Shown here: positions 10,372 to 18,867 of the stretch, in pieces
Position numbering within the stretch: position 1 is the stretch's first letter
Layout: every line of letters begins with the position of its first letter
Assembly: GCA_963666285.1 (NCBI GenBank)
Contig: OY762711.1
From: Sedimentisphaerales bacterium
GTDB taxonomy: Bacteria; Planctomycetota; Phycisphaerae; Sedimentisphaerales; SM23-30
DNA: 64,000 bases
Strand: one strand, 5' to 3'
Made by a program: the position numbers and the translations under genes
The notes under the pieces: model-generated
What the model saw: the letters and a program-made list of their open reading frames with translations, nothing else
Database searches by the model: none
Told to the model about the DNA's origin: nothing

Positions 10372-13300
10372 ATGAAGCGGACTATCGATGAATTTACCAA
10401 TCTGTATTCTTTGAGTAAGACTTTGCGCTTTGAGCTTAAGCCAGTAGGTGAAACAGCGGAAAAGCTGGAAGAATTCAAAAATGAAGGATTAAAGACAATT
10501 GTCGAACAAGACAAAAATCGGGCAAAGGACTACAAGGAGATAAAAAAGATAATTGATAGCTATCATCGATATTTCATTGATGAAGTATTATCAGGAGAAA
10601 TATTAACTGCTGATGAGATTGTAGAAGCCTATAACCTGTACAGCAATGCCACTAAACCTGGGGCCGCAAAAGAGAAAAAAGAAGAATATGCAAAAACACA
10701 AGAGAAGTTAAGAAAGAAGATTTCCGAGAGGTTTTCTGCTGAGAGCAAGAAATACCATCTTTATAAAGGAGACTTTTCCAAGCTCATCAATATGCAAGGG
10801 TCCGGTAAAAATAAAACTAAAGGCAAATTATGGCACTGGCTAAAAGATAGACTTGATAGCGGAAAAATAACAAAAGAAGAATTTGATCAAGCTGACGAGT
10901 ATATAGCAGACTTTGATAAATTCACAACATACTTTGCTGGCTTTAATCAGAACAGGGATAATCTATATGTAGATAAGGACCAGTCAACTGCTATTGCCTA
11001 TCGCATAGTCCATGAGAATATGGCAAAGCATTTTGAGAATTGTAAGAGAATAAACAAAATTGAAATGGAAGAAAGATATTCAGAACTATCGGAATTACTT
11101 CGCTCTCGAAAAGAGATATTTAAGCCTGCTGAGTTTGTGAAATATCTCGGACAAAAAGGGATTGATATATATAACGAAGCAATCGGTCATAAGGCGGATG
11201 ATATAAATGCAAAAGGTATTAACCAGATAATTAATGAATACCGTCAGAAAAATAATATTAAACCGCGTGAACTGCCTGTAATGACGACATTATACAAGCA
11301 GATATTGAGTGATCGAGAAAACGGATTTGTGATTGATGAATTTTTGAGTGATAAAGAAGTATTTGAAGCTATTCAAGAAGTTAATAGAAGTTTAGTTGAT
11401 TCCGAGCTTGTTGAAAATATTATGAACTGTCTGGATGAATATATGCAAGCAGGCAGCCAAGTTGGAATGTACATAAAAAATGACCTTGCATTGACAGATA
11501 TTTCTCAAAAGTATTTCTGTGACTGGTCTTTAATTGGCAGGGCAATTAATGTTTATGCTGAAGAATCTTTAGGTCTTAATCTGGATAAGCGAGAAGCATT
11601 GAGTAAAGAAGATTTTTACTCAATAGAGTTTGTTCAAAAAACTGTTGATTATTACTATGATTCAATTAATATGCCAGATCAGAAAAAATATTTAGCGGAA
11701 TATTTCAGAGGATTTTCAGTTGATGGTAAATTGTTGAGTGATAGTTTTTGTGAAGCATATAAAGAAGTAGAAGCAGTATTAAAACAGGAAGAACTGAATA
11801 AAGACAGGCGGGTCCCCAAGGATGAAAAAGACAAAGGTGGAAAAGGATTTCAACAGATAGAGAAAATAAAGAAGTACCTGGACAGCGTGTTGGCAATTCA
11901 ACATTTTCTGAAACCACTATATATGATGAAAAGCGGCAAGATGATAGAGTTGGGAGAGAAAAACAGTGACTTTTATGACAGATTTAATCCGCTATATGAG
12001 AGTCTTTCAGACATTATCGGAGTATACAATAAAGTAAGGAATTATGTAACGAAAAAGCCCTACAAAACTGACAAATTTAAGATCAATTTTGAAAATAGCA
12101 CATTACTTGACGGTTGGGATGTTAATAAAGAAATTGCTAATAATAGCGTTTTATTATTCAAAGATAACAAATATTTCCTTGGAGTAATGAAAAAAGATTC
12201 TAACAATATGTTTAATTACAGACAGGAAGCAGATGATTCAAAAAACAAGTTGGAAGCTAAGAAAGCAATAGAGAAAAAGATAATAGCAACTGAATCTGAA
12301 GAATACTATGAAAAAATGGTTTACAAGCTTTTGCCAGATCCATCAAAAATGCTTCCAAAGGTATTTTTTAGTAAAAAGAACATCAATTATTATAGCCCTA
12401 CACAAGAAGTTTTGGAAATTCGAGAAAAAGGGTTATTTAAGAAGGCTGCAAACGACAAAAAATCAATGTATAAATGGATTGATTTCATGAAAGAATCTTT
12501 AGGGAGTCACCCTGAGTGGAATCAATATTTTGATTTCACTTTCACAAAAACTAAAGAATTTAGAGATAGTAGTGAGTTTTACAAAGAAGTTGCCGAACAG
12601 GGATATAGCCTAACATATGATAGAATCAAGAAATCATATATTGACGAACATGTTGCTAAGGGTAATTTATATCTATTTGAGATATACAATAAGGATATGT
12701 CGCCATACAGCAAGGGCAGGCCCAACCTCCATACAAGTTACTGGAAACTGTTATTTGCCCATGAAAACCTTAATGATCTTGTTATTAAATTAAATGGTCA
12801 AGCAGAAGTATTTTTCCGCCCACGATCGTTGAAAAAGAAAGAAACGGCAGTACACAAAGCAAATGAGGCAATAGAAAACAAGAACCCACTGAATGCCAAA
12901 AAGATTAGCAGATTTAACTATGATATAATAAAAGACAAAAGGTTCACACAAGATAAGTTTTTCTTTCACTGCCCTATCACGCTAAATTTCAAATCGGGTG
13001 GATTTGGCAAATTCAATGACAAAGTAATTGAGTTTTTGAGAAATAATCCAGATGTTTGTATTATTGGAATAGATAGAGGCGAACGTCATCTGCTGTATTA
13101 TACAGTTATAAATCAAAAAGGTGTAATCTTGGAACAAGGGAGTTTTAATACTATAACCAGCAATATGACAAGTGAAGGTAAGAAAGTCCCAATGACGACG
13201 GATTATCATAATCTGCTTGATAAAAAAGAGAAGGAGCGAGATGCTGCACGGAAAAGCTGGTCAGCAGTAGAGAATATAAAAGAACTCAAAAGCGGCTATT

Positions 13301-14244
13301 TGTCTCATGTAGTACACAAGCTGGCAACACTTATGGTTAAGCATAATGCTATAGTATGCCTGGAGGATCTGAATTTCGGGTTTAAACGCGGCAGGTTTAA
13401 ATTTGAAAAACAGGTATATCAGAAGTTTGAAAAAGCTCTTATAGATAAGTTGAATTACCTGGTATTTAAGGATAATAAACCGGAGGAAGCCGGACATTAT
13501 CTGAAAGCTTATCAGTTGACGGCTCCATTTGAGAGTTTTCAAAAGCTGGGAAAACAGAGCGGTTTTTTGTTTTATGTAACAAGTGACTATACATCAAAGA
13601 TTGATCCGGTGACAGGATTTGCCAATCGTATTAATACTAGGTACGAATCGGTCGAAAAGAGTTGTAAGCTTTTTGAGAAATTTGAGAGTATCCGGTATAG
13701 TCCAGAGAAGAATTATTTTGAATTTGTAATTGATTACTCACAACTGGAAGGAAGCGGGCTAGAGAAATGGACTATCTGTACGCACGGCAAGGAACGTTAC
13801 AGATATAACAGGGAAAAACAGAATTATGAATGTTATGACGTAACTTCAAACCTGAAAGATCTGTTTAGGTCAGAGCAAATAGAATATACAGCGGGAAAAG
13901 ATATAAGAGCCGACATTTTAGCTAGGAAAGAGAAGAAATATGCTGATTTCTTCAGGAAGTTACTATTCAACGTTTCATTAACAGTCCAATTGAGACATAC
14001 ATATAAAGTTAATAGCGAAGAGAAAGACTTTATTCTATCACCAGTAGCAAAAAATGGTAAGTTTTTTGACTCTCGTGAATACGAGAGTATAGAGAATTCG
14101 CAATTACCAATAAATGCAGATGCCAACGGAGCATATAATATAGCCAGGAAAGGTCTGCTGACATTATTAAAGCAAATTAATGAAGGAAATAAACCCTCAG
14201 CAATTAGGAATGCAGACTGGTTTGATTTTGTGCAGAAAAGATAA
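10372..14244 (+). CDS. cas12a: Type V-A CRISPR effector Cas12a (Cpf1)
   Basis: N-terminus FTNLYSLSKTLRFELKP; KLLPDPSKMLPKVFF; RuvC-I IGIDRGERHL, RuvC-II LEDLNFGFK, RuvC-III ADANGAYNIARKG; 1290 aa. Confidence 0.98.
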   Translation: MKRTIDEFTNLYSLSKTLRFELKPVGETAEKLEEFKNEGLKTIVEQDKNRAKDYKEIKKIIDSYHRYFIDEVLSGEILTADEIVEAYNLYSNATKPGAAKEKKEEYAKTQEKLRKKISERFSAESKKYHLYKGDFSKLINMQGSGKNKTKGKLWHWLKDRLDSGKITKEEFDQADEYIADFDKFTTYFAGFNQNRDNLYVDKDQSTAIAYRIVHENMAKHFENCKRINKIEMEERYSELSELLRSRKEIFKPAEFVKYLGQKGIDIYNEAIGHKADDINAKGINQIINEYRQKNNIKPRELPVMTTLYKQILSDRENGFVIDEFLSDKEVFEAIQEVNRSLVDSELVENIMNCLDEYMQAGSQVGMYIKNDLALTDISQKYFCDWSLIGRAINVYAEESLGLNLDKREALSKEDFYSIEFVQKTVDYYYDSINMPDQKKYLAEYFRGFSVDGKLLSDSFCEAYKEVEAVLKQEELNKDRRVPKDEKDKGGKGFQQIEKIKKYLDSVLAIQHFLKPLYMMKSGKMIELGEKNSDFYDRFNPLYESLSDIIGVYNKVRNYVTKKPYKTDKFKINFENSTLLDGWDVNKEIANNSVLLFKDNKYFLGVMKKDSNNMFNYRQEADDSKNKLEAKKAIEKKIIATESEEYYEKMVYKLLPDPSKMLPKVFFSKKNINYYSPTQEVLEIREKGLFKKAANDKKSMYKWIDFMKESLGSHPEWNQYFDFTFTKTKEFRDSSEFYKEVAEQGYSLTYDRIKKSYIDEHVAKGNLYLFEIYNKDMSPYSKGRPNLHTSYWKLLFAHENLNDLVIKLNGQAEVFFRPRSLKKKETAVHKANEAIENKNPLNAKKISRFNYDIIKDKRFTQDKFFFHCPITLNFKSGGFGKFNDKVIEFLRNNPDVCIIGIDRGERHLLYYTVINQKGVILEQGSFNTITSNMTSEGKKVPMTTDYHNLLDKKEKERDAARKSWSAVENIKELKSGYLSHVVHKLATLMVKHNAIVCLEDLNFGFKRGRFKFEKQVYQKFEKALIDKLNYLVFKDNKPEEAGHYLKAYQLTAPFESFQKLGKQSGFLFYVTSDYTSKIDPVTGFANRINTRYESVEKSCKLFEKFESIRYSPEKNYFEFVIDYSQLEGSGLEKWTICTHGKERYRYNREKQNYECYDVTSNLKDLFRSEQIEYTAGKDIRADILARKEKKYADFFRKLLFNVSLTVQLRHTYKVNSEEKDFILSPVAKNGKFFDSREYESIENSQLPINADANGAYNIARKGLLTLLKQINEGNKPSAIRNADWFDFVQKR

Positions 14245-14339
14245 AAAATAATTTAGTTAAGTTCTTTGACAATTAAATACGATATATCATACAAGATATA
14301 TAATTAATATGAGTGCAGTTCATTTGAGTGAGGTCATAG

Positions 14340-14903
14340 ATGGAGAGCTATATACCCATATCATATCTGAATGATTTTATATTTTGTCCGAGGTCGATCT
14401 ATTTCCATCAGCTCCATGGCCGGTTAAGCACGAAATTGTACCATGATGTCGCCCAGACAGCCGGTCGTGCAGCTCATGAAGCAATAGACAATAAGAAATA
14501 TTCCACTCGCAAGAATATTTTGCAGGGTATAGAGGTATATTGCTCTCAATACAATATTGCCGGTAAGATCGATATTTTTGACATTAAAACCGGTTTACTG
14601 ACTGAGCGTAAGAAGCAGATCAAAGCAATTTACGACGGCTATGTGTTCCAGTTATATGCCCAGTATTTCGGTTTGACAGAGGCTGGCTATGCGGTGAAAA
14701 CCATTCGTTTTTACAGTCGTGATGATAACAAGGTATGGCCGGTAGAATTACCAGACAATAATCAAGAAATGTTTGCTAAATTTGAAGAAACAGTTCGGCA
14801 AATACACAATTATGACCTCAATAATTATCGTCAGACAAATATAAAAAAATGTGAGAACTGCATATATGAGCCATTATGCGACCAATCTTTAGCGTTCAGA
14901 TAA
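14340..14903 (+). CDS. cas4: Type V CRISPR-associated Cas4
   Basis: ISYLNDFIFCPRSIYFH, GKIDIFD..ERK, QLYAQY, C-terminal CxxCxxxxxC. Confidence 0.95.
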   Translation: MESYIPISYLNDFIFCPRSIYFHQLHGRLSTKLYHDVAQTAGRAAHEAIDNKKYSTRKNILQGIEVYCSQYNIAGKIDIFDIKTGLLTERKKQIKAIYDGYVFQLYAQYFGLTEAGYAVKTIRFYSRDDNKVWPVELPDNNQEMFAKFEETVRQIHNYDLNNYRQTNIKKCENCIYEPLCDQSLAFR

Positions 14904-14918
14904 TAGAAGGGTAATGTT

Positions 14919-15902
14919 ATGTTAAGCGCACCAGATTTCAAACAGAAGCAAATTATCTTTGCCATGTTAAGCCATGGTGAACACTTAAGCTTTAAAAATG
15001 ACAATGTAATAATAAAAGACAGTGAAGGGGCGATCAAGCATCAATCAACATGCTACAGGCTGTTTGCTCTATTGATAGTAGGTCATATAAGCATAACAAG
15101 CGGTTTACTACAGCGAGCCGAGAAATTTGGCTTTACAATAGTACTAATGACCCATACCTTACGAGTTTACGGATTGTGGTCTTGCGGAGCTGAAGGCAAT
15201 GTCTTGCTGCGGAAGAAACAATATGATTATGAAAACTTATCTATAGCAAAACATATAGTCAAGAATAAGATCTTTAATCAATTATCAGCACTAAAACGTA
15301 TTCGAGGTAAAACAGAATCGCAACAAGCAGGGATAACAGACCTGCAATCATATTTGGAGCGTCTGGAAGAAACAAAAGATTTTGATTTACAGGAAATACT
15401 CGGTATAGAAGGAACTGCCGGTCGGTCATATTTCAAGAACATCTTTTCGGATTATAACTGGCAAGGTCGCCGTCCACGAGTAAAGCATGATATGACTAAC
15501 TGCATGATGGACATAGGCTATACGCTACTTTTTAACATAATAGAAGCCTTGCTCAAGGTGTATGGTTTTGACTTATATCGAGGTGTATATCATCAGGAAT
15601 TTTATCAGAGGAAATCGCTGGTATGCGACCTGGTTGAGCCGTTCAGGCCTTTGATTGACTGGCAAATACGGAAGTCATACAATTTGGGCCAGGTAAAGGA
15701 AAAAGATTTTACTATACGCCAGAATCAATATTGCCTATACGGTAAATCTGCAGGCCCATATATTGTAAATCTGCTTGAGCCGCTAATAAAAGAGAAGCAG
15801 AATATATTTCTCTATGTTCAGGGTTATTACCGCAGTTTTATGAAGGGCAAGGAAGCAGAAGAATTTCCATTTTATGAAATGGAGGCAGGTAAATGCTTAT
15901 AG
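14919..15902 (+). CDS. cas1: Type V CRISPR-associated Cas1
   Basis: GIEGTAGRSYF, GVYHQEFYQRKSLVCDLVEPFR; lies between cas4 and cas2. Confidence 0.96.
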   Translation: MLSAPDFKQKQIIFAMLSHGEHLSFKNDNVIIKDSEGAIKHQSTCYRLFALLIVGHISITSGLLQRAEKFGFTIVLMTHTLRVYGLWSCGAEGNVLLRKKQYDYENLSIAKHIVKNKIFNQLSALKRIRGKTESQQAGITDLQSYLERLEETKDFDLQEILGIEGTAGRSYFKNIFSDYNWQGRRPRVKHDMTNCMMDIGYTLLFNIIEALLKVYGFDLYRGVYHQEFYQRKSLVCDLVEPFRPLIDWQIRKSYNLGQVKEKDFTIRQNQYCLYGKSAGPYIVNLLEPLIKEKQNIFLYVQGYYRSFMKGKEAEEFPFYEMEAGKCL

Positions 15903-16168
15903 TGTCATATGATATAAGTGACGACAAATTACGAACACGCTTTGCAAAATACTTGAAAAAGTTTGGATATAGATTACAATATTCGGTGTTCGAGGTGCGA
16001 AACAGTCCTCGCGTTCTAAACTGCATAGCAACTGAAATAGACAGTAATTTCGGTAAACAGTTCGAACAGAAAGACAGTGTAATAATATTTAACCTAAGCC
16101 AACAGTGCAAAAAGTACTGTTACGGTTATGCCCGAAATGACCAGGACGATTTGATAGTAATTGATTGA
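15893..16168 (+). CDS. cas2: CRISPR-associated Cas2
   Basis: MLIVSYDISDDKLR..G.RLQYSVFE. Confidence 0.96.
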   Translation: MLIVSYDISDDKLRTRFAKYLKKFGYRLQYSVFEVRNSPRVLNCIATEIDSNFGKQFEQKDSVIIFNLSQQCKKYCYGYARNDQDDLIVID

Positions 16169-16294: not shown

Positions 16295-16894
16295 GTCTAG
16301 AAGACATATTAAATTTCTACTGTTGTAGATGTTTTAGAACCACAGATGGACACGGAGTCTAGAAGACATATTAAATTTCTACTGTTGTAGATTCGATTCC
16401 TTACCACCCGCAGAGCAAGTCTAGAAGACATATTAAATTTCTACTGTTGTAGATTACGATCAGCATTGGTTAAATCAGCAGGTCTAGAAGACATATTAAA
16501 TTTCTACTGTTGTAGATTTCTTACTTGGTGTTATCTCTCAAATAGGTCTAGAAGACATATTAAATTTCTACTGTTGTAGATCTAAGTCGCATGCTCTGTG
16601 AATTACAGTCTAGAAGACATATTAAATTTCTACTGTTGTAGATCTGATATCATGGACGGATTATAAGCTTGTCTAGAAGACATATTAAATTTCTACTGTT
16701 GTAGATATAATAATTAGTATCTCTTTTGCTTTGGTCTAGAAGACATATTAAATTTCTACTGTTGTAGATTTACAATATCTTTTGCCTCAATATCTGTCTA
16801 GAAGACATATTAAATTTCTACTGTTGTAGATCGAACGTATACCCCCCTGTCTTCAGGGGTCTAGAAGACATATTAAATTTCTACTGTTGTAGAT
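16295..16894 (+). CRISPR. Type V-A array, leader-proximal part: 10 repeats, 9 intact spacers of 26-28 bp
   Basis: Repeat GTCTAGAAGACATATTAAATTTCTACTGTTGTAGAT (36 bp) starting at 16295, 16357, 16419, 16482, 16546, 16608, 16671, 16734, 16796, 16859; canonical Cas12a 3' handle AATTTCTACTGTTGTAGAT. Confidence 0.99.
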
Positions 16895-16980
16895 ATAGTT
16901 TCGTGCCTTTCGTGTTTTTCTATGAAGCCAGAATGCAACATTAATTTTCTAATTTTATTCATTTTTGCTATAATTCCTTT

Positions 16981-17070
16981 ATCTTGCAAAGGATAGGGCT
17001 CTGCTGAGGAGCAACCCGAGCGTTGCAAGTTGTCGAGAAGCCGGGGCGGTTTTACACCGCCTCGTTTTTT
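16981..17070 (+). ncRNA. Small structured RNA resembling the Acido-Lenti-1 motif, inside the IS end
   Basis: TGCTATAAT extended -10 at 16966-16974; stem CTTGCAA/TTGCAAG with inner hairpin; linker GTCGAGAAGCC; terminator hairpin 17042-17064 plus T6. Family resemblance is from memory of the motif. Confidence 0.5.
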
Positions 17071-17074
17071 GCTT

Positions 17075-17310
17075 TTTGACCTTATGCGATAAACCTATTT
17101 AAAACAATTTTCGCGTAGCGAATCATTATTTACCTGATTGTTTCATCTTTCTATCCGGAGTGTCCGAGGCTGTATTTTACGCCATGGTTCCATTATATAT
17201 ATTGCGATACGGCTTAATTTTCGTGTCAGGTTCAAAACCCAAATGCACGACCAAGGTTCCGTATCGATTTCAATCGGGAAAAATCATAGGTAATATTTTA
17301 TCTTTTACTT
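17075..17310 (-). ncRNA. Candidate bridge RNA / seekRNA of the IS1111-type element (boundaries approximate)
   Basis: 8-bp stem CGATACGG (17205-17212)/CCGTATCG (17259-17266) enclosing TTTTCGTG and CACGA, which match opposite strands of the insertion site. Confidence 0.65.
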
Positions 17311-17319
17311 ATATTGGTA

Positions 17320-18366
17320 TCAAACACTTTGCAACTCGGGCATCTGCCAACTTGTCCCATCTCGCATCATCGCCCACAATCGTACGAACAACCGTCGGGC
17401 TGTAGCTACTATCGCTATTTTTGCACGAGTTTTACTTCCCCTCTTTATTCTTTCGTATGTTTCTTTTATCCATGGATTCCAACGCAAACCCAGCCAGCAA
17501 ACCTCAACAAGTAATGCTCGCAATAACCTATTGCCATATTTACTTATCCGCCCATGACGGTCTGTATTACCTGATTGGTACTGACGCGGTGTCATACCAA
17601 TATAGCTGCCAACTTGTTTGCAATTCTTAAATCTATGTGGATCATCAATATAAGCTGCAACTGCCTCTGCCAGACGTGGGCCAACTCCGGGAACAGTCTG
17701 TAATAGTTTTACTTTTTCATCAGTACTATTTAACTCTTCCAGTTTATCTTCAACTACTTGCAAAGCGTCTGTTAATTGTTCCAGTAATATAAGCTCGCTC
17801 CATAGATTGCCTTTCCAGAGCTCATCTGGTTTAACTTTATCCATTGGCATAGCCATACTTCTTAACTGTTCCAGATTCTGCTTAGACCAGCACTTTCTGC
17901 CTGACGGCAACGAATACGCCTGGGCATTTAATAAAGAACGAATAGTATTTTTTACCTGAGTTATCCGTTCTGTAAGGCTCTGGCGATAATTAATTAAAGA
18001 TCGTTTCTCGCGAATTTCCTTTTTAGGAACATAGACAGTTGATAAATCTCCTAAAGCAGCACGCTTGGCCAGCCAAAATGCATCCTTTTTATCTGTTTTC
18101 TTCTTCAATTTTCTGCCAGACCATTCGCCGGTATTAGTATTTGCCACTTCATATTTTAATTCCAGGGTGTCAAAAAGGTCACAAATCCAGCCTATGATAT
18201 CACAAGCCTCAAATACAATAAGATCAGCAGGGTGAGATACTGCCAGGTCATGAAGCTCTTGAGGGTTAGTCTTAAACGACTTATATGTAGCCTTACAGCT
18301 TTTTACCTCATAAAAACAAACTACACTCTTGAATTTTCCTAAATCAATTGACATAATAGTCTTCAT
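17320..18366 (-). CDS. IS110-family DEDD recombinase/transposase
   Basis: IDLGK (D), FEAC (E), KTDKKDA (D,D), TVPGVGP, QSG catalytic serine, ISKYGNRLLR; 348 aa and intact. Confidence 0.96.
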   Translation of the reverse strand: MKTIMSIDLGKFKSVVCFYEVKSCKATYKSFKTNPQELHDLAVSHPADLIVFEACDIIGWICDLFDTLELKYEVANTNTGEWSGRKLKKKTDKKDAFWLAKRAALGDLSTVYVPKKEIREKRSLINYRQSLTERITQVKNTIRSLLNAQAYSLPSGRKCWSKQNLEQLRSMAMPMDKVKPDELWKGNLWSELILLEQLTDALQVVEDKLEELNSTDEKVKLLQTVPGVGPRLAEAVAAYIDDPHRFKNCKQVGSYIGMTPRQYQSGNTDRHGRISKYGNRLLRALLVEVCWLGLRWNPWIKETYERIKRGSKTRAKIAIVATARRLFVRLWAMMRDGTSWQMPELQSV

Positions 18367-18494
18367 AGCCAGAATACTCCGTATAAAATAGGTTAAATAT
18401 TTGAGCGTCCCTGTGACAGCTCGTGCTAAAATTATTGTGTATTATAACACAAGCCATGCTACAGGAATATTCTGGCTTTCATTGTATTTTCGTG

Positions 18495-18718
18495 GTCTAG
18501 AAGACATATTAAATTTCTACTGTTGTAGATTCACATCATCGCTTATTGATGAAGATGGTCTAGAAGACATATTAAATTTCTACTGTTGTAGATTTGCCTT
18601 CTTTCTTTTAAGTTTTATAGTCTAGAAGACATATTAAATTTCTACTGTTGTAGATTAAAAAAGGTGACGTGATCGATTATGGGTCTAGAAGACATATTAA
18701 ATTTCTACTGTTGTAGAT
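18495..18718 (+). CRISPR. Type V-A array, distal part: 4 repeats, 3 spacers
   Basis: Same 36-bp repeat at 18495, 18558, 18620, 18683. Confidence 0.99.
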
Positions 18719-18816: not shown

Positions 18817-18867
18817 TCTCATCTTTTATCGGATTCCATATAAGGGAGAACCAGATAAAAGATGAGA
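18817..18867. terminator. Perfect 14-bp inverted repeat between the convergent CRISPR array and lysA; possible bidirectional terminator
   Basis: TCTCATCTTTTATC (18817-18830) and GATAAAAGATGAGA (18854-18867), flanked by A runs. Confidence 0.5.

Follow-up and report, generated by a model that had tools for sequence, protein, structure and literature searches.

A small structured RNA, predicted to be independently transcribed, recurs as cargo of unrelated insertion sequences, plasmids and phages

We describe here a structured RNA of about 90 nt, predicted to be transcribed independently, that has been captured as cargo by mobile elements. The family appears to be widespread, lies outside Rfam, and is apparently uncatalogued, in that no published description of it was found. 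One copy is present in the window (the whole 64,000-nucleotide stretch of DNA analysed here), within an insertion sequence (IS) that interrupts a CRISPR array; its place in the array is incidental. The existence of a conserved structured element is close to certain, and its pairing pattern, promoters and terminators indicate that it very probably works as an RNA. We propose that the RNA acts in trans by binding a conserved host protein, and that it would protect or process, or else tune, single-stranded or branched circle intermediates, a reading to which we assign a probability of about 0.45.

Results

The window copy is on the plus strand and belongs to the subfamily that we call type A. An extended -10 box (TG at 16966-16967 and TATAAT at 16969-16974), read from the sequence as the predicted promoter, precedes a predicted RNA of about 90 nt (16981..17070) whose start is placed 7 nt past the box. 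The conserved rod (16983..17029) comprises an outer stem, P1 (CTTGCAA at 16983-16989 and TTGCAAG at 17023-17029), a purine-rich internal loop, P2 (16996-16998/17015-17017), a 3x1 bulge, and P3 with a 4-nt purine loop. A linker (17032-17042) leads to an intrinsic terminator (17042..17070) consisting of a 9-pair hairpin (17042-17064) and T6 (17065-17070), and a terminator scan agrees with this assignment. The first-pass annotation had located the box, the stem, the linker and the 9-bp hairpin with T6 correctly, and its view of the locus as IS cargo, a passenger gene for a small RNA complete with promoter and terminator, is supported, with transcription being predicted. It had not included the most conserved part of the RNA, an inner hairpin within the outer stem (16997..17016, plus strand), which is the family core common to both subfamilies and has the sequence GGCWCTGCWGRRRWGCAACC. 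The 90-nt unit folds as a rod with an inner 4-bp hairpin followed by the terminator, and this fold beats 199 of 200 shuffles (z -2.8). The fold is more than chance, because it reappears in unrelated contexts with compensatory substitutions, and the promoter, stem and terminator of the window copy are real. The copy scores 70.2 bits with covariance model R1, whose training set included the window.

The carrier is an IS110 element with an IS1111-like layout (16917..18491, minus strand), present in nine near-identical genomic copies. It sits between repeats 10 and 11 of a type V-A CRISPR array of 14 repeats (16295..18718, plus strand), which lies 3' of cas12a-cas4-cas1-cas2 (10372-16168), and it interrupts spacer 10. 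The element is multicopy, has DEDD and Transposase_20 domains, and has a short duplicated core of 4 nt (16917-16920 and 18488-18491, from junction comparison of the copies); there are also imperfect subterminal inverted repeats (16922-16934 and 18469-18482) and a transposase of 348 aa (17320..18366, minus strand; PF01548 and PF02371, with NF033542 above cut-off). Downstream of the transposase, a probable bridge/seek RNA (17090..17265, minus strand) is predicted from its fold (z -1.5) and from short words like the target repeat and the donor junction. As previously annotated, the small RNA converges on the region where the bridge RNA is expected and is oriented like the pre-crRNA, in the sense direction of the array. 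Junction comparison places the other copies of this element in a TTTCGTG-type interspersed repeat, and the 5' 26 nt of the interrupted spacer 10 (16895..16920, plus strand) resemble that repeat. The insertion in spacer 10 is thus plausibly a consequence of this resemblance, and a repeat-targeting IS110 could enter an array by such a route. Self-targeting by spacer 10 was considered as a cause of insertion and rejected, there being no genomic match within 5 mismatches.

BLAST of the 90-nt unit found its inner part at further places in the source genome. A degenerate 20-mer derived from the genomic copies has exactly 15 matches plus two unrelated sites with 3 mismatches, and the covariance models return the same 15 copies and, among the best 150 candidates, nothing else at E up to 1. 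All 15 are inside three unrelated IS (nine in IS110, two in IS256 and four in an IS3/IS481-type element); every copy lies within the repeated IS unit and has a -10 box and a terminator of its own, and the outer stem varies through compensatory changes. In the same genome the RNA is absent from two multicopy IS701 elements (7 and 5 copies) and from IS5/ISNCY-like elements, and also from circle-forming multicopy elements, namely two IS3, one IS30, one IS256 and two IS110. An RNA-less IS256 is inserted in one IS3-type copy just upstream of the RNA cassette (G000:C1:229462-230909), and two multicopy elements (G000:C1:1407237, 7 copies, and 4257608, 3 copies) have ORFs of 231 aa and about 510 aa with no Pfam or NCBIfam match.

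A total of 139 non-redundant sequences includes 33 of type A (window-like) and 79 of type C, the rest being other or truncated forms; 10 further type C sequences added by eye bring that subfamily to 89, and six loci were left out of the structural sets as likely chance matches (L030, L129, L201, L213, L204 and L208). Type C has a larger purine-rich loop than type A, with UGAAR-like and AGNRA-like words on the two strands of the internal loop that do not occur in type A. The apical part is common to both and consists of a short P2, the 3x1 bulge, a 4-bp P3 and a purine tetraloop. The search pattern permitted all four combinations at the top pair of P3, and among the 119 metagenome matches listed this pair is T-A in 92, A-T in 26 and T-T in one; G-C variants also occur among relatives. 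In the 33 type A sequences, pairing is 88.7%, compared with 72.4±1.2% in shuffled sequences and 27.7-49.3% in slid controls, and covariation is 0.430 versus 0.141; both sides change in nine of 15 pairs, a count that shuffles reach too. Since the window sequence served to draw the type A structure and the core served as the search pattern, the invariance of the core is partly built in, but the signal in P1 and in the P2 extension is not. Near-invariant unpaired bases are kept across phyla, and the flanks of relatives have a median identity of 45-48%. G-U pairs exceed A-C on the promoter strand by 55 to 15 in 84 of the 89 type C sequences and by 11 to 7 in type A.

The transcription unit recurs along with the fold. 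A -10-like or Bacteroidota-type box is present at offsets -34 to -28, a range picked from the promoter profile of the same sequences, in 27/33 type A and 60/89 type C members, compared with 7-10/33 and 19-20/89 in four upstream control windows, and a TTG word peaks about 17 nt upstream of the box. Terminator-like hairpins in 109 relatives number 73 downstream in the sense orientation, 32 antisense and 19 upstream. The family thus has what is expected of a stand-alone small RNA gene, a covarying structure on one strand, a promoter at fixed distance and a 3' terminator, and the covariation, the -10 box at constant distance and the terminators on the sense strand together support a transcribed RNA.

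Carriers were typed at 80 metagenome loci with flanks, among the matches listed, by scanning the longest ORF on each side (147 proteins, counting those from genome and viral loci); a second search then used the transposases found, 21 proteins were typed with NCBIfam, and 77 of 81 further ORFs from blank loci were scanned. A transposase lies within 900 nt at 48 of the 80 loci, representing 35 lineages at 50% identity. These are IS3-type (17), IS110 (13), IS21 (4), IS256 (3), ISL3 (3), IS481-type (3), IS30 (2), IS1202/ISNCY (2) and ISH6-like (1). All 48 belong to circle-forming families, as assigned with a library built from the carrier matches themselves and with the scan for further IS confined to loci where no circle-forming transposase had already been found. 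None of the 48 is an IS4, IS5, IS630, IS66, IS6, IS200/605 or Tn3 transposase, whereas in 33 motif-bearing genomes DDE_Tnp_1 (IS4/IS5-type) matches outnumber those of rve_3 (IS3-type) by 351 to 201, a background that counts copies rather than lineages and comes from one phylum. The carrier list is nearly equal to the list of circle-forming, presumed copy-out families given in part of an earlier study (10.1101/2023.06.07.543989). The earlier reading is also too narrow, as the RNA is not IS110-specific, being found in plasmids, in phages and with nine IS groups. Types A and C are each represented in IS110, IS3, IS21, IS30 and IS1202, which suggests that the cassette has been captured by, or has crossed between, families repeatedly.

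The arrangement is variable: relative to the mobile-element gene (n=54), the RNA is convergent in 33 cases, in tandem in 11 and on the 5' side in 10. A further seven of the 80 loci have Rep_1, Mob, integrase, AAA_22 or DUF1670 genes, and 25 have no mobile-element gene in these scans; 13 of the 25 end less than 300 nt downstream, and one (L114) has an integrase by PHROGs. In genome G062 the transposases nearest to two copies are an IS4 and an IS66 fragment; both copies are near-identical to the IS3-borne cassette of that genome and look like nested insertions, one of them being deprived of its promoter by the IS4 end. A fragment of a group II maturase is found close to one genome locus. At L073 (639-1751) a DUF1670 gene ends just ahead of a tandem type A copy, placed as a transposase gene would be, and DUF1670 may mark an unrecognised mobile element.

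Four Microviridae records, with genomes of 4.7-5.3 kb, carry the RNA. In the three that were opened (65.0, 40.8 and 28.3 bits) it occupies the gene (virion) strand and lies either between genes or across the end of an ORF, and one of the three has a Bacteroidota-type promoter. A 12-kb plasmid has the RNA 3' of repL, Rep_1 genes are near the RNA in five loci, Mob neighbours are also seen, and in genome G319 two copies adjoin ardC. IMG/VR contains 20 exact matches: about four fall within long ORFs and probably arose by chance, several belong to IS inside phage, and several are genuine copies in regions of tailed phage, close to terminase, portal or recombination genes.

The core pattern matches 23 of 201 genomes of the order (reversed control, 0), with one match being a CRISPR spacer, and, in a second phylum, two of 151 genomes, one of which has a full member; covariance model R2 has matches in 14 of 151 genomes of the phylum, and a pattern scan of metagenomes gave at least 118 stretches. 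The spacer is in another genome of the order (G138; L016:1501-1520), and capture of the RNA core in this form is a sign of its arrival on invading DNA. Named carriers include Bacteroidota and Acidobacteriota plasmids, and the IS110 beside locus L062 clusters with Parabacteroides proteins, where the clustering is by transposase protein and not by cassette. A transposase-led search of genome contigs gave just two distant loci and was uninformative, and blastn of five short queries against PLSDB, an insensitive search, gave two genuine records, the other rows being short chance matches. At L115 (1801-1912), beside an IS256, the promoter and the 5' part of the RNA are partially duplicated in tandem, and at L014, L035 and L090 the cassette is flanked by short inverted repeats, has no transposase close by and may be a miniature non-autonomous element.

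Comparison with described RNAs places the family apart from each of them. The first-pass annotation had likened it to Acido-Lenti-1 (RF01687), but that model has no match in the window at gathering threshold, nor in 16800-18600 at E up to 10. The two are alike in being small, multicopy motifs of unknown function, but Acido-Lenti-1, as partly described in PMC2864571, is a 46-nt two-hairpin motif that differs in length, topology and sequence and does not have the family core. Rfam 15 gave no match in 20 loci at gathering, and only five unrelated sub-threshold matches in 20 other loci at E up to 10; the core also has no match to the CRISPR repeat of the window array. The closest described case is Ssr9/Asr9 of the IS110 element ISPpu9 of Pseudomonas putida, RNA genes with their own promoters and a predicted terminator downstream of the transposase; in the relevant part of that account they are dispensable for transposition, ISPpu9 targets an interspersed repeat, and the RNAs are complementary to the 5' region of their own element and confined to it (PMC12288879). 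In contrast, the present fold is common to nine IS groups, plasmids and phages, a distinction drawn from description, and it has no fixed relation to the start of the transposase gene. It also departs from cis-antisense regulators of IS such as RNA-OUT and Asr9, since 44 of 54 copies are past the 3' end of the gene and orientation is variable. Bridge and seek RNAs of IS110/IS1111 are likewise non-coding RNAs in an IS end region, but in the window the small RNA is on the opposite strand, its loops are invariant rather than programmable, and most of its carriers are not IS110 (IS3, IS21, IS30, IS256, ISL3, IS481 and IS1202).

A full-text search of the literature found no description, although the family may exist as an unnamed cluster in catalogues of candidate RNAs. 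The core words are absent from the supplements of PMC8632094 and from the covered parts of those of PMC10690425 and PMC8040213, and the portions considered of 10.64898/2026.09.15.751765, 10.64898/2026.08.14.744561 and PMC7780238 make no mention of it. It may be an unnamed cluster in the database of 10.64898/2026.10.21.760802, which was partially covered.

Discussion

The diversity of the carriers suggests where the RNA might act. IS are usually taken to hold only what their own transposase needs, but an RNA common to DDE, Mutator-like and DEDD chemistries and to 5-kb phages must act on a host target that all of them face, and with no protein common to the carriers the RNA should act on the host. 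The nature of these carriers suggests a role directed at a host factor that handles DNA circles: they are IS families that copy out through a circle bridged by one strand, plasmids that replicate by rolling circle, ssDNA phages, and integrative elements bearing ardC. Most of them, IS110 included, have in common a circular intermediate that arises when one strand is displaced or bridged. Action in trans is favoured by the variable orientation, by the promoter that the RNA has of its own, and by its absence from neighbouring IS that also form circles. The near-invariant apical hairpin (2-3 bp, a 3x1 bulge, 4 bp and a purine tetraloop) would be the putative binding site for the host protein, and the RNA might decoy or tune a factor that attacks, or processes, circular DNA in single-stranded or branched form, such as a nuclease, a helicase, or an SOS or defence sensor. 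Adenovirus VA RNA decoys a host sensor, and this RNA and the RNA anti-CRISPRs resemble our family as small stand-alone parasite RNAs with a proposed titration of host protein, as a functional analogy. The IEE PrimPol-helicase is similar in that its reach is set by the copy-out pathway and not by transposase family, but, in the part of the study concerned, it is a protein and aborts transposition (10.1101/2023.06.07.543989). IEE/AEP-TOTE was rejected as an obligatory partner, as 5/23 motif-bearing and 12/178 other genomes are over the cut-off, none is over it in the source genome, and the association is weak and confounded by mobile-DNA load.

Several observations weigh against a circle role. 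Most circle-forming IS do not have the RNA, including seven or more multicopy elements in the source genome, the tailed-phage contexts near terminase, portal and recombination genes have no obvious ssDNA circle, 25 of 80 loci have no mobile-element gene, and the G062 copies are nearest to IS4 and IS66. A trans-acting RNA could instead have a general anti-defence or translation job unrelated to circles, such as inhibition of a ribonuclease toxin or of an abortive-infection protein, or binding to tRNA, in which case the IS bias would reflect spare 3' space or which lineages captured the RNA first. Its presence in tailed phages fits this alternative, and the type C loop words recall the paired T-loops with which RNase P, T-boxes and the L1 stalk hold the elbow of tRNA, as set out in part of PMC4810234, but type A, including the window copy, does not have that loop and yet keeps the core. 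Comparison with shuffles found no core-like or complementary stretch beyond chance in host RNase P RNA, 16S rRNA or 23S rRNA. As the absence of IS4/IS5-type neighbours (0/48) is also left unexplained, we regard such a job as unlikely. A single-strand origin acting in cis is a somewhat weaker candidate, in which the hairpin on the displaced strand lets the host prime the second strand in the manner of ssi or sso sites. All carriers need conversion of ssDNA to dsDNA, the element is on the virion strand in the three opened microviruses and on the rep/mob strand where checked, and it has short purine-rich words in common with the phiX174 F-G region and with ColE1; primosome assembly sites such as those of phiX174 and ColE1 ssiA are, in the covered part of PMC3167613, also hairpins with purine-rich words in replicons that pass through ssDNA. 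But these are DNA signals without a promoter or terminator, phiX174 and ColE1 score at most 10.4 bits (E 0.66) with either model, and a DNA signal needs neither a lineage-appropriate promoter at fixed distance nor a downstream terminator. The genes of such replicons are co-oriented in any case, and the element is found on either strand of IS110, although IS110 is reported, in part of 10.1101/2025.10.25.684509, to copy out the top strand only, via ssDNA or dsDNA circles.

The RNA itself might be functionless, either as a selfish or neutral cassette or as an insulator that shields the transposase from read-through, and its usual position 3' of the transposase, its patchy distribution and its presence in some short remnants bounded by inverted repeats would fit. 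We consider this improbable given the compensatory changes and the conservation in the rod relative to the flanks, and its retention in phage genomes as small as those of the microviruses. The near-invariant unpaired bases could also belong to a new class of small ribozyme or ligand-binding RNA, but 40 loci have no match to an Rfam ribozyme or riboswitch and the RNA is a stand-alone transcription unit with no fixed downstream gene, which makes this reading slightly more improbable still. Least credible, to the point of being very nearly dismissed, is the role originally annotated, the silencing of distal crRNAs together with ending of the bridge RNA. An intrinsic terminator at this position would halt leader-driven transcription ahead of spacers 11-13, and a sense-strand terminator does separate spacer 10 from spacers 11-13. 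Silencing is at most a side effect, however, as eight of nine IS110 copies are outside the array, as are 14 of the 15 genomic copies of the RNA, the initial 26 nt of spacer 10 are retained, and a promoter-like site on the plus strand at the far IS end (18348-18375, 10/12 match), pointing outward, could re-start transcription of spacers 11-13. The proposal that the terminator sets the 3' end of the bridge RNA is unsupported, since no U tract accompanies the hairpin when it is read on the minus strand and the terminator is listed on the plus strand only, and most carriers have no bridge RNA.

A host-directed action in trans on circle intermediates thus remains our preferred reading. The carrier list tracks transposition pathway and not ancestry, and the host side of copy-out is poorly known. 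More tentatively, and with the odds somewhat against it, the RNA could be a pan-mobilome factor, captured independently in several phyla by the majority of copy-out IS families, by rolling-circle plasmids and by ssDNA phages, that neutralises or recruits a host protein on ssDNA and figure-eight circles. Were this true, it would indicate a host checkpoint, so far unrecognised, that acts on copy-out transposition and on ssDNA replicons, together with the first RNA counter-measure common to unrelated IS families. The small RNA is a ready bait for pulling down the host factor, cultured Parabacteroides have annotated relatives of one carrier IS110, and, should it increase the yield of circles, the RNA could be relevant to tools built on the IS110 bridge recombinase.

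The array itself offers two minor observations. Spacer 2 (16393-16418) has a one-mismatch match to the host chromosome (G000:C1:5307714), preceded by CTTC and not by a canonical Cas12a TTTV PAM; the matched gene encodes a Mu-type transposase and is followed by a transposition ATPase, consistent with targeting of a resident Mu-like prophage. A 20-bp inverted repeat past the array (18817-18867) is a likely terminator between the array and lysA.
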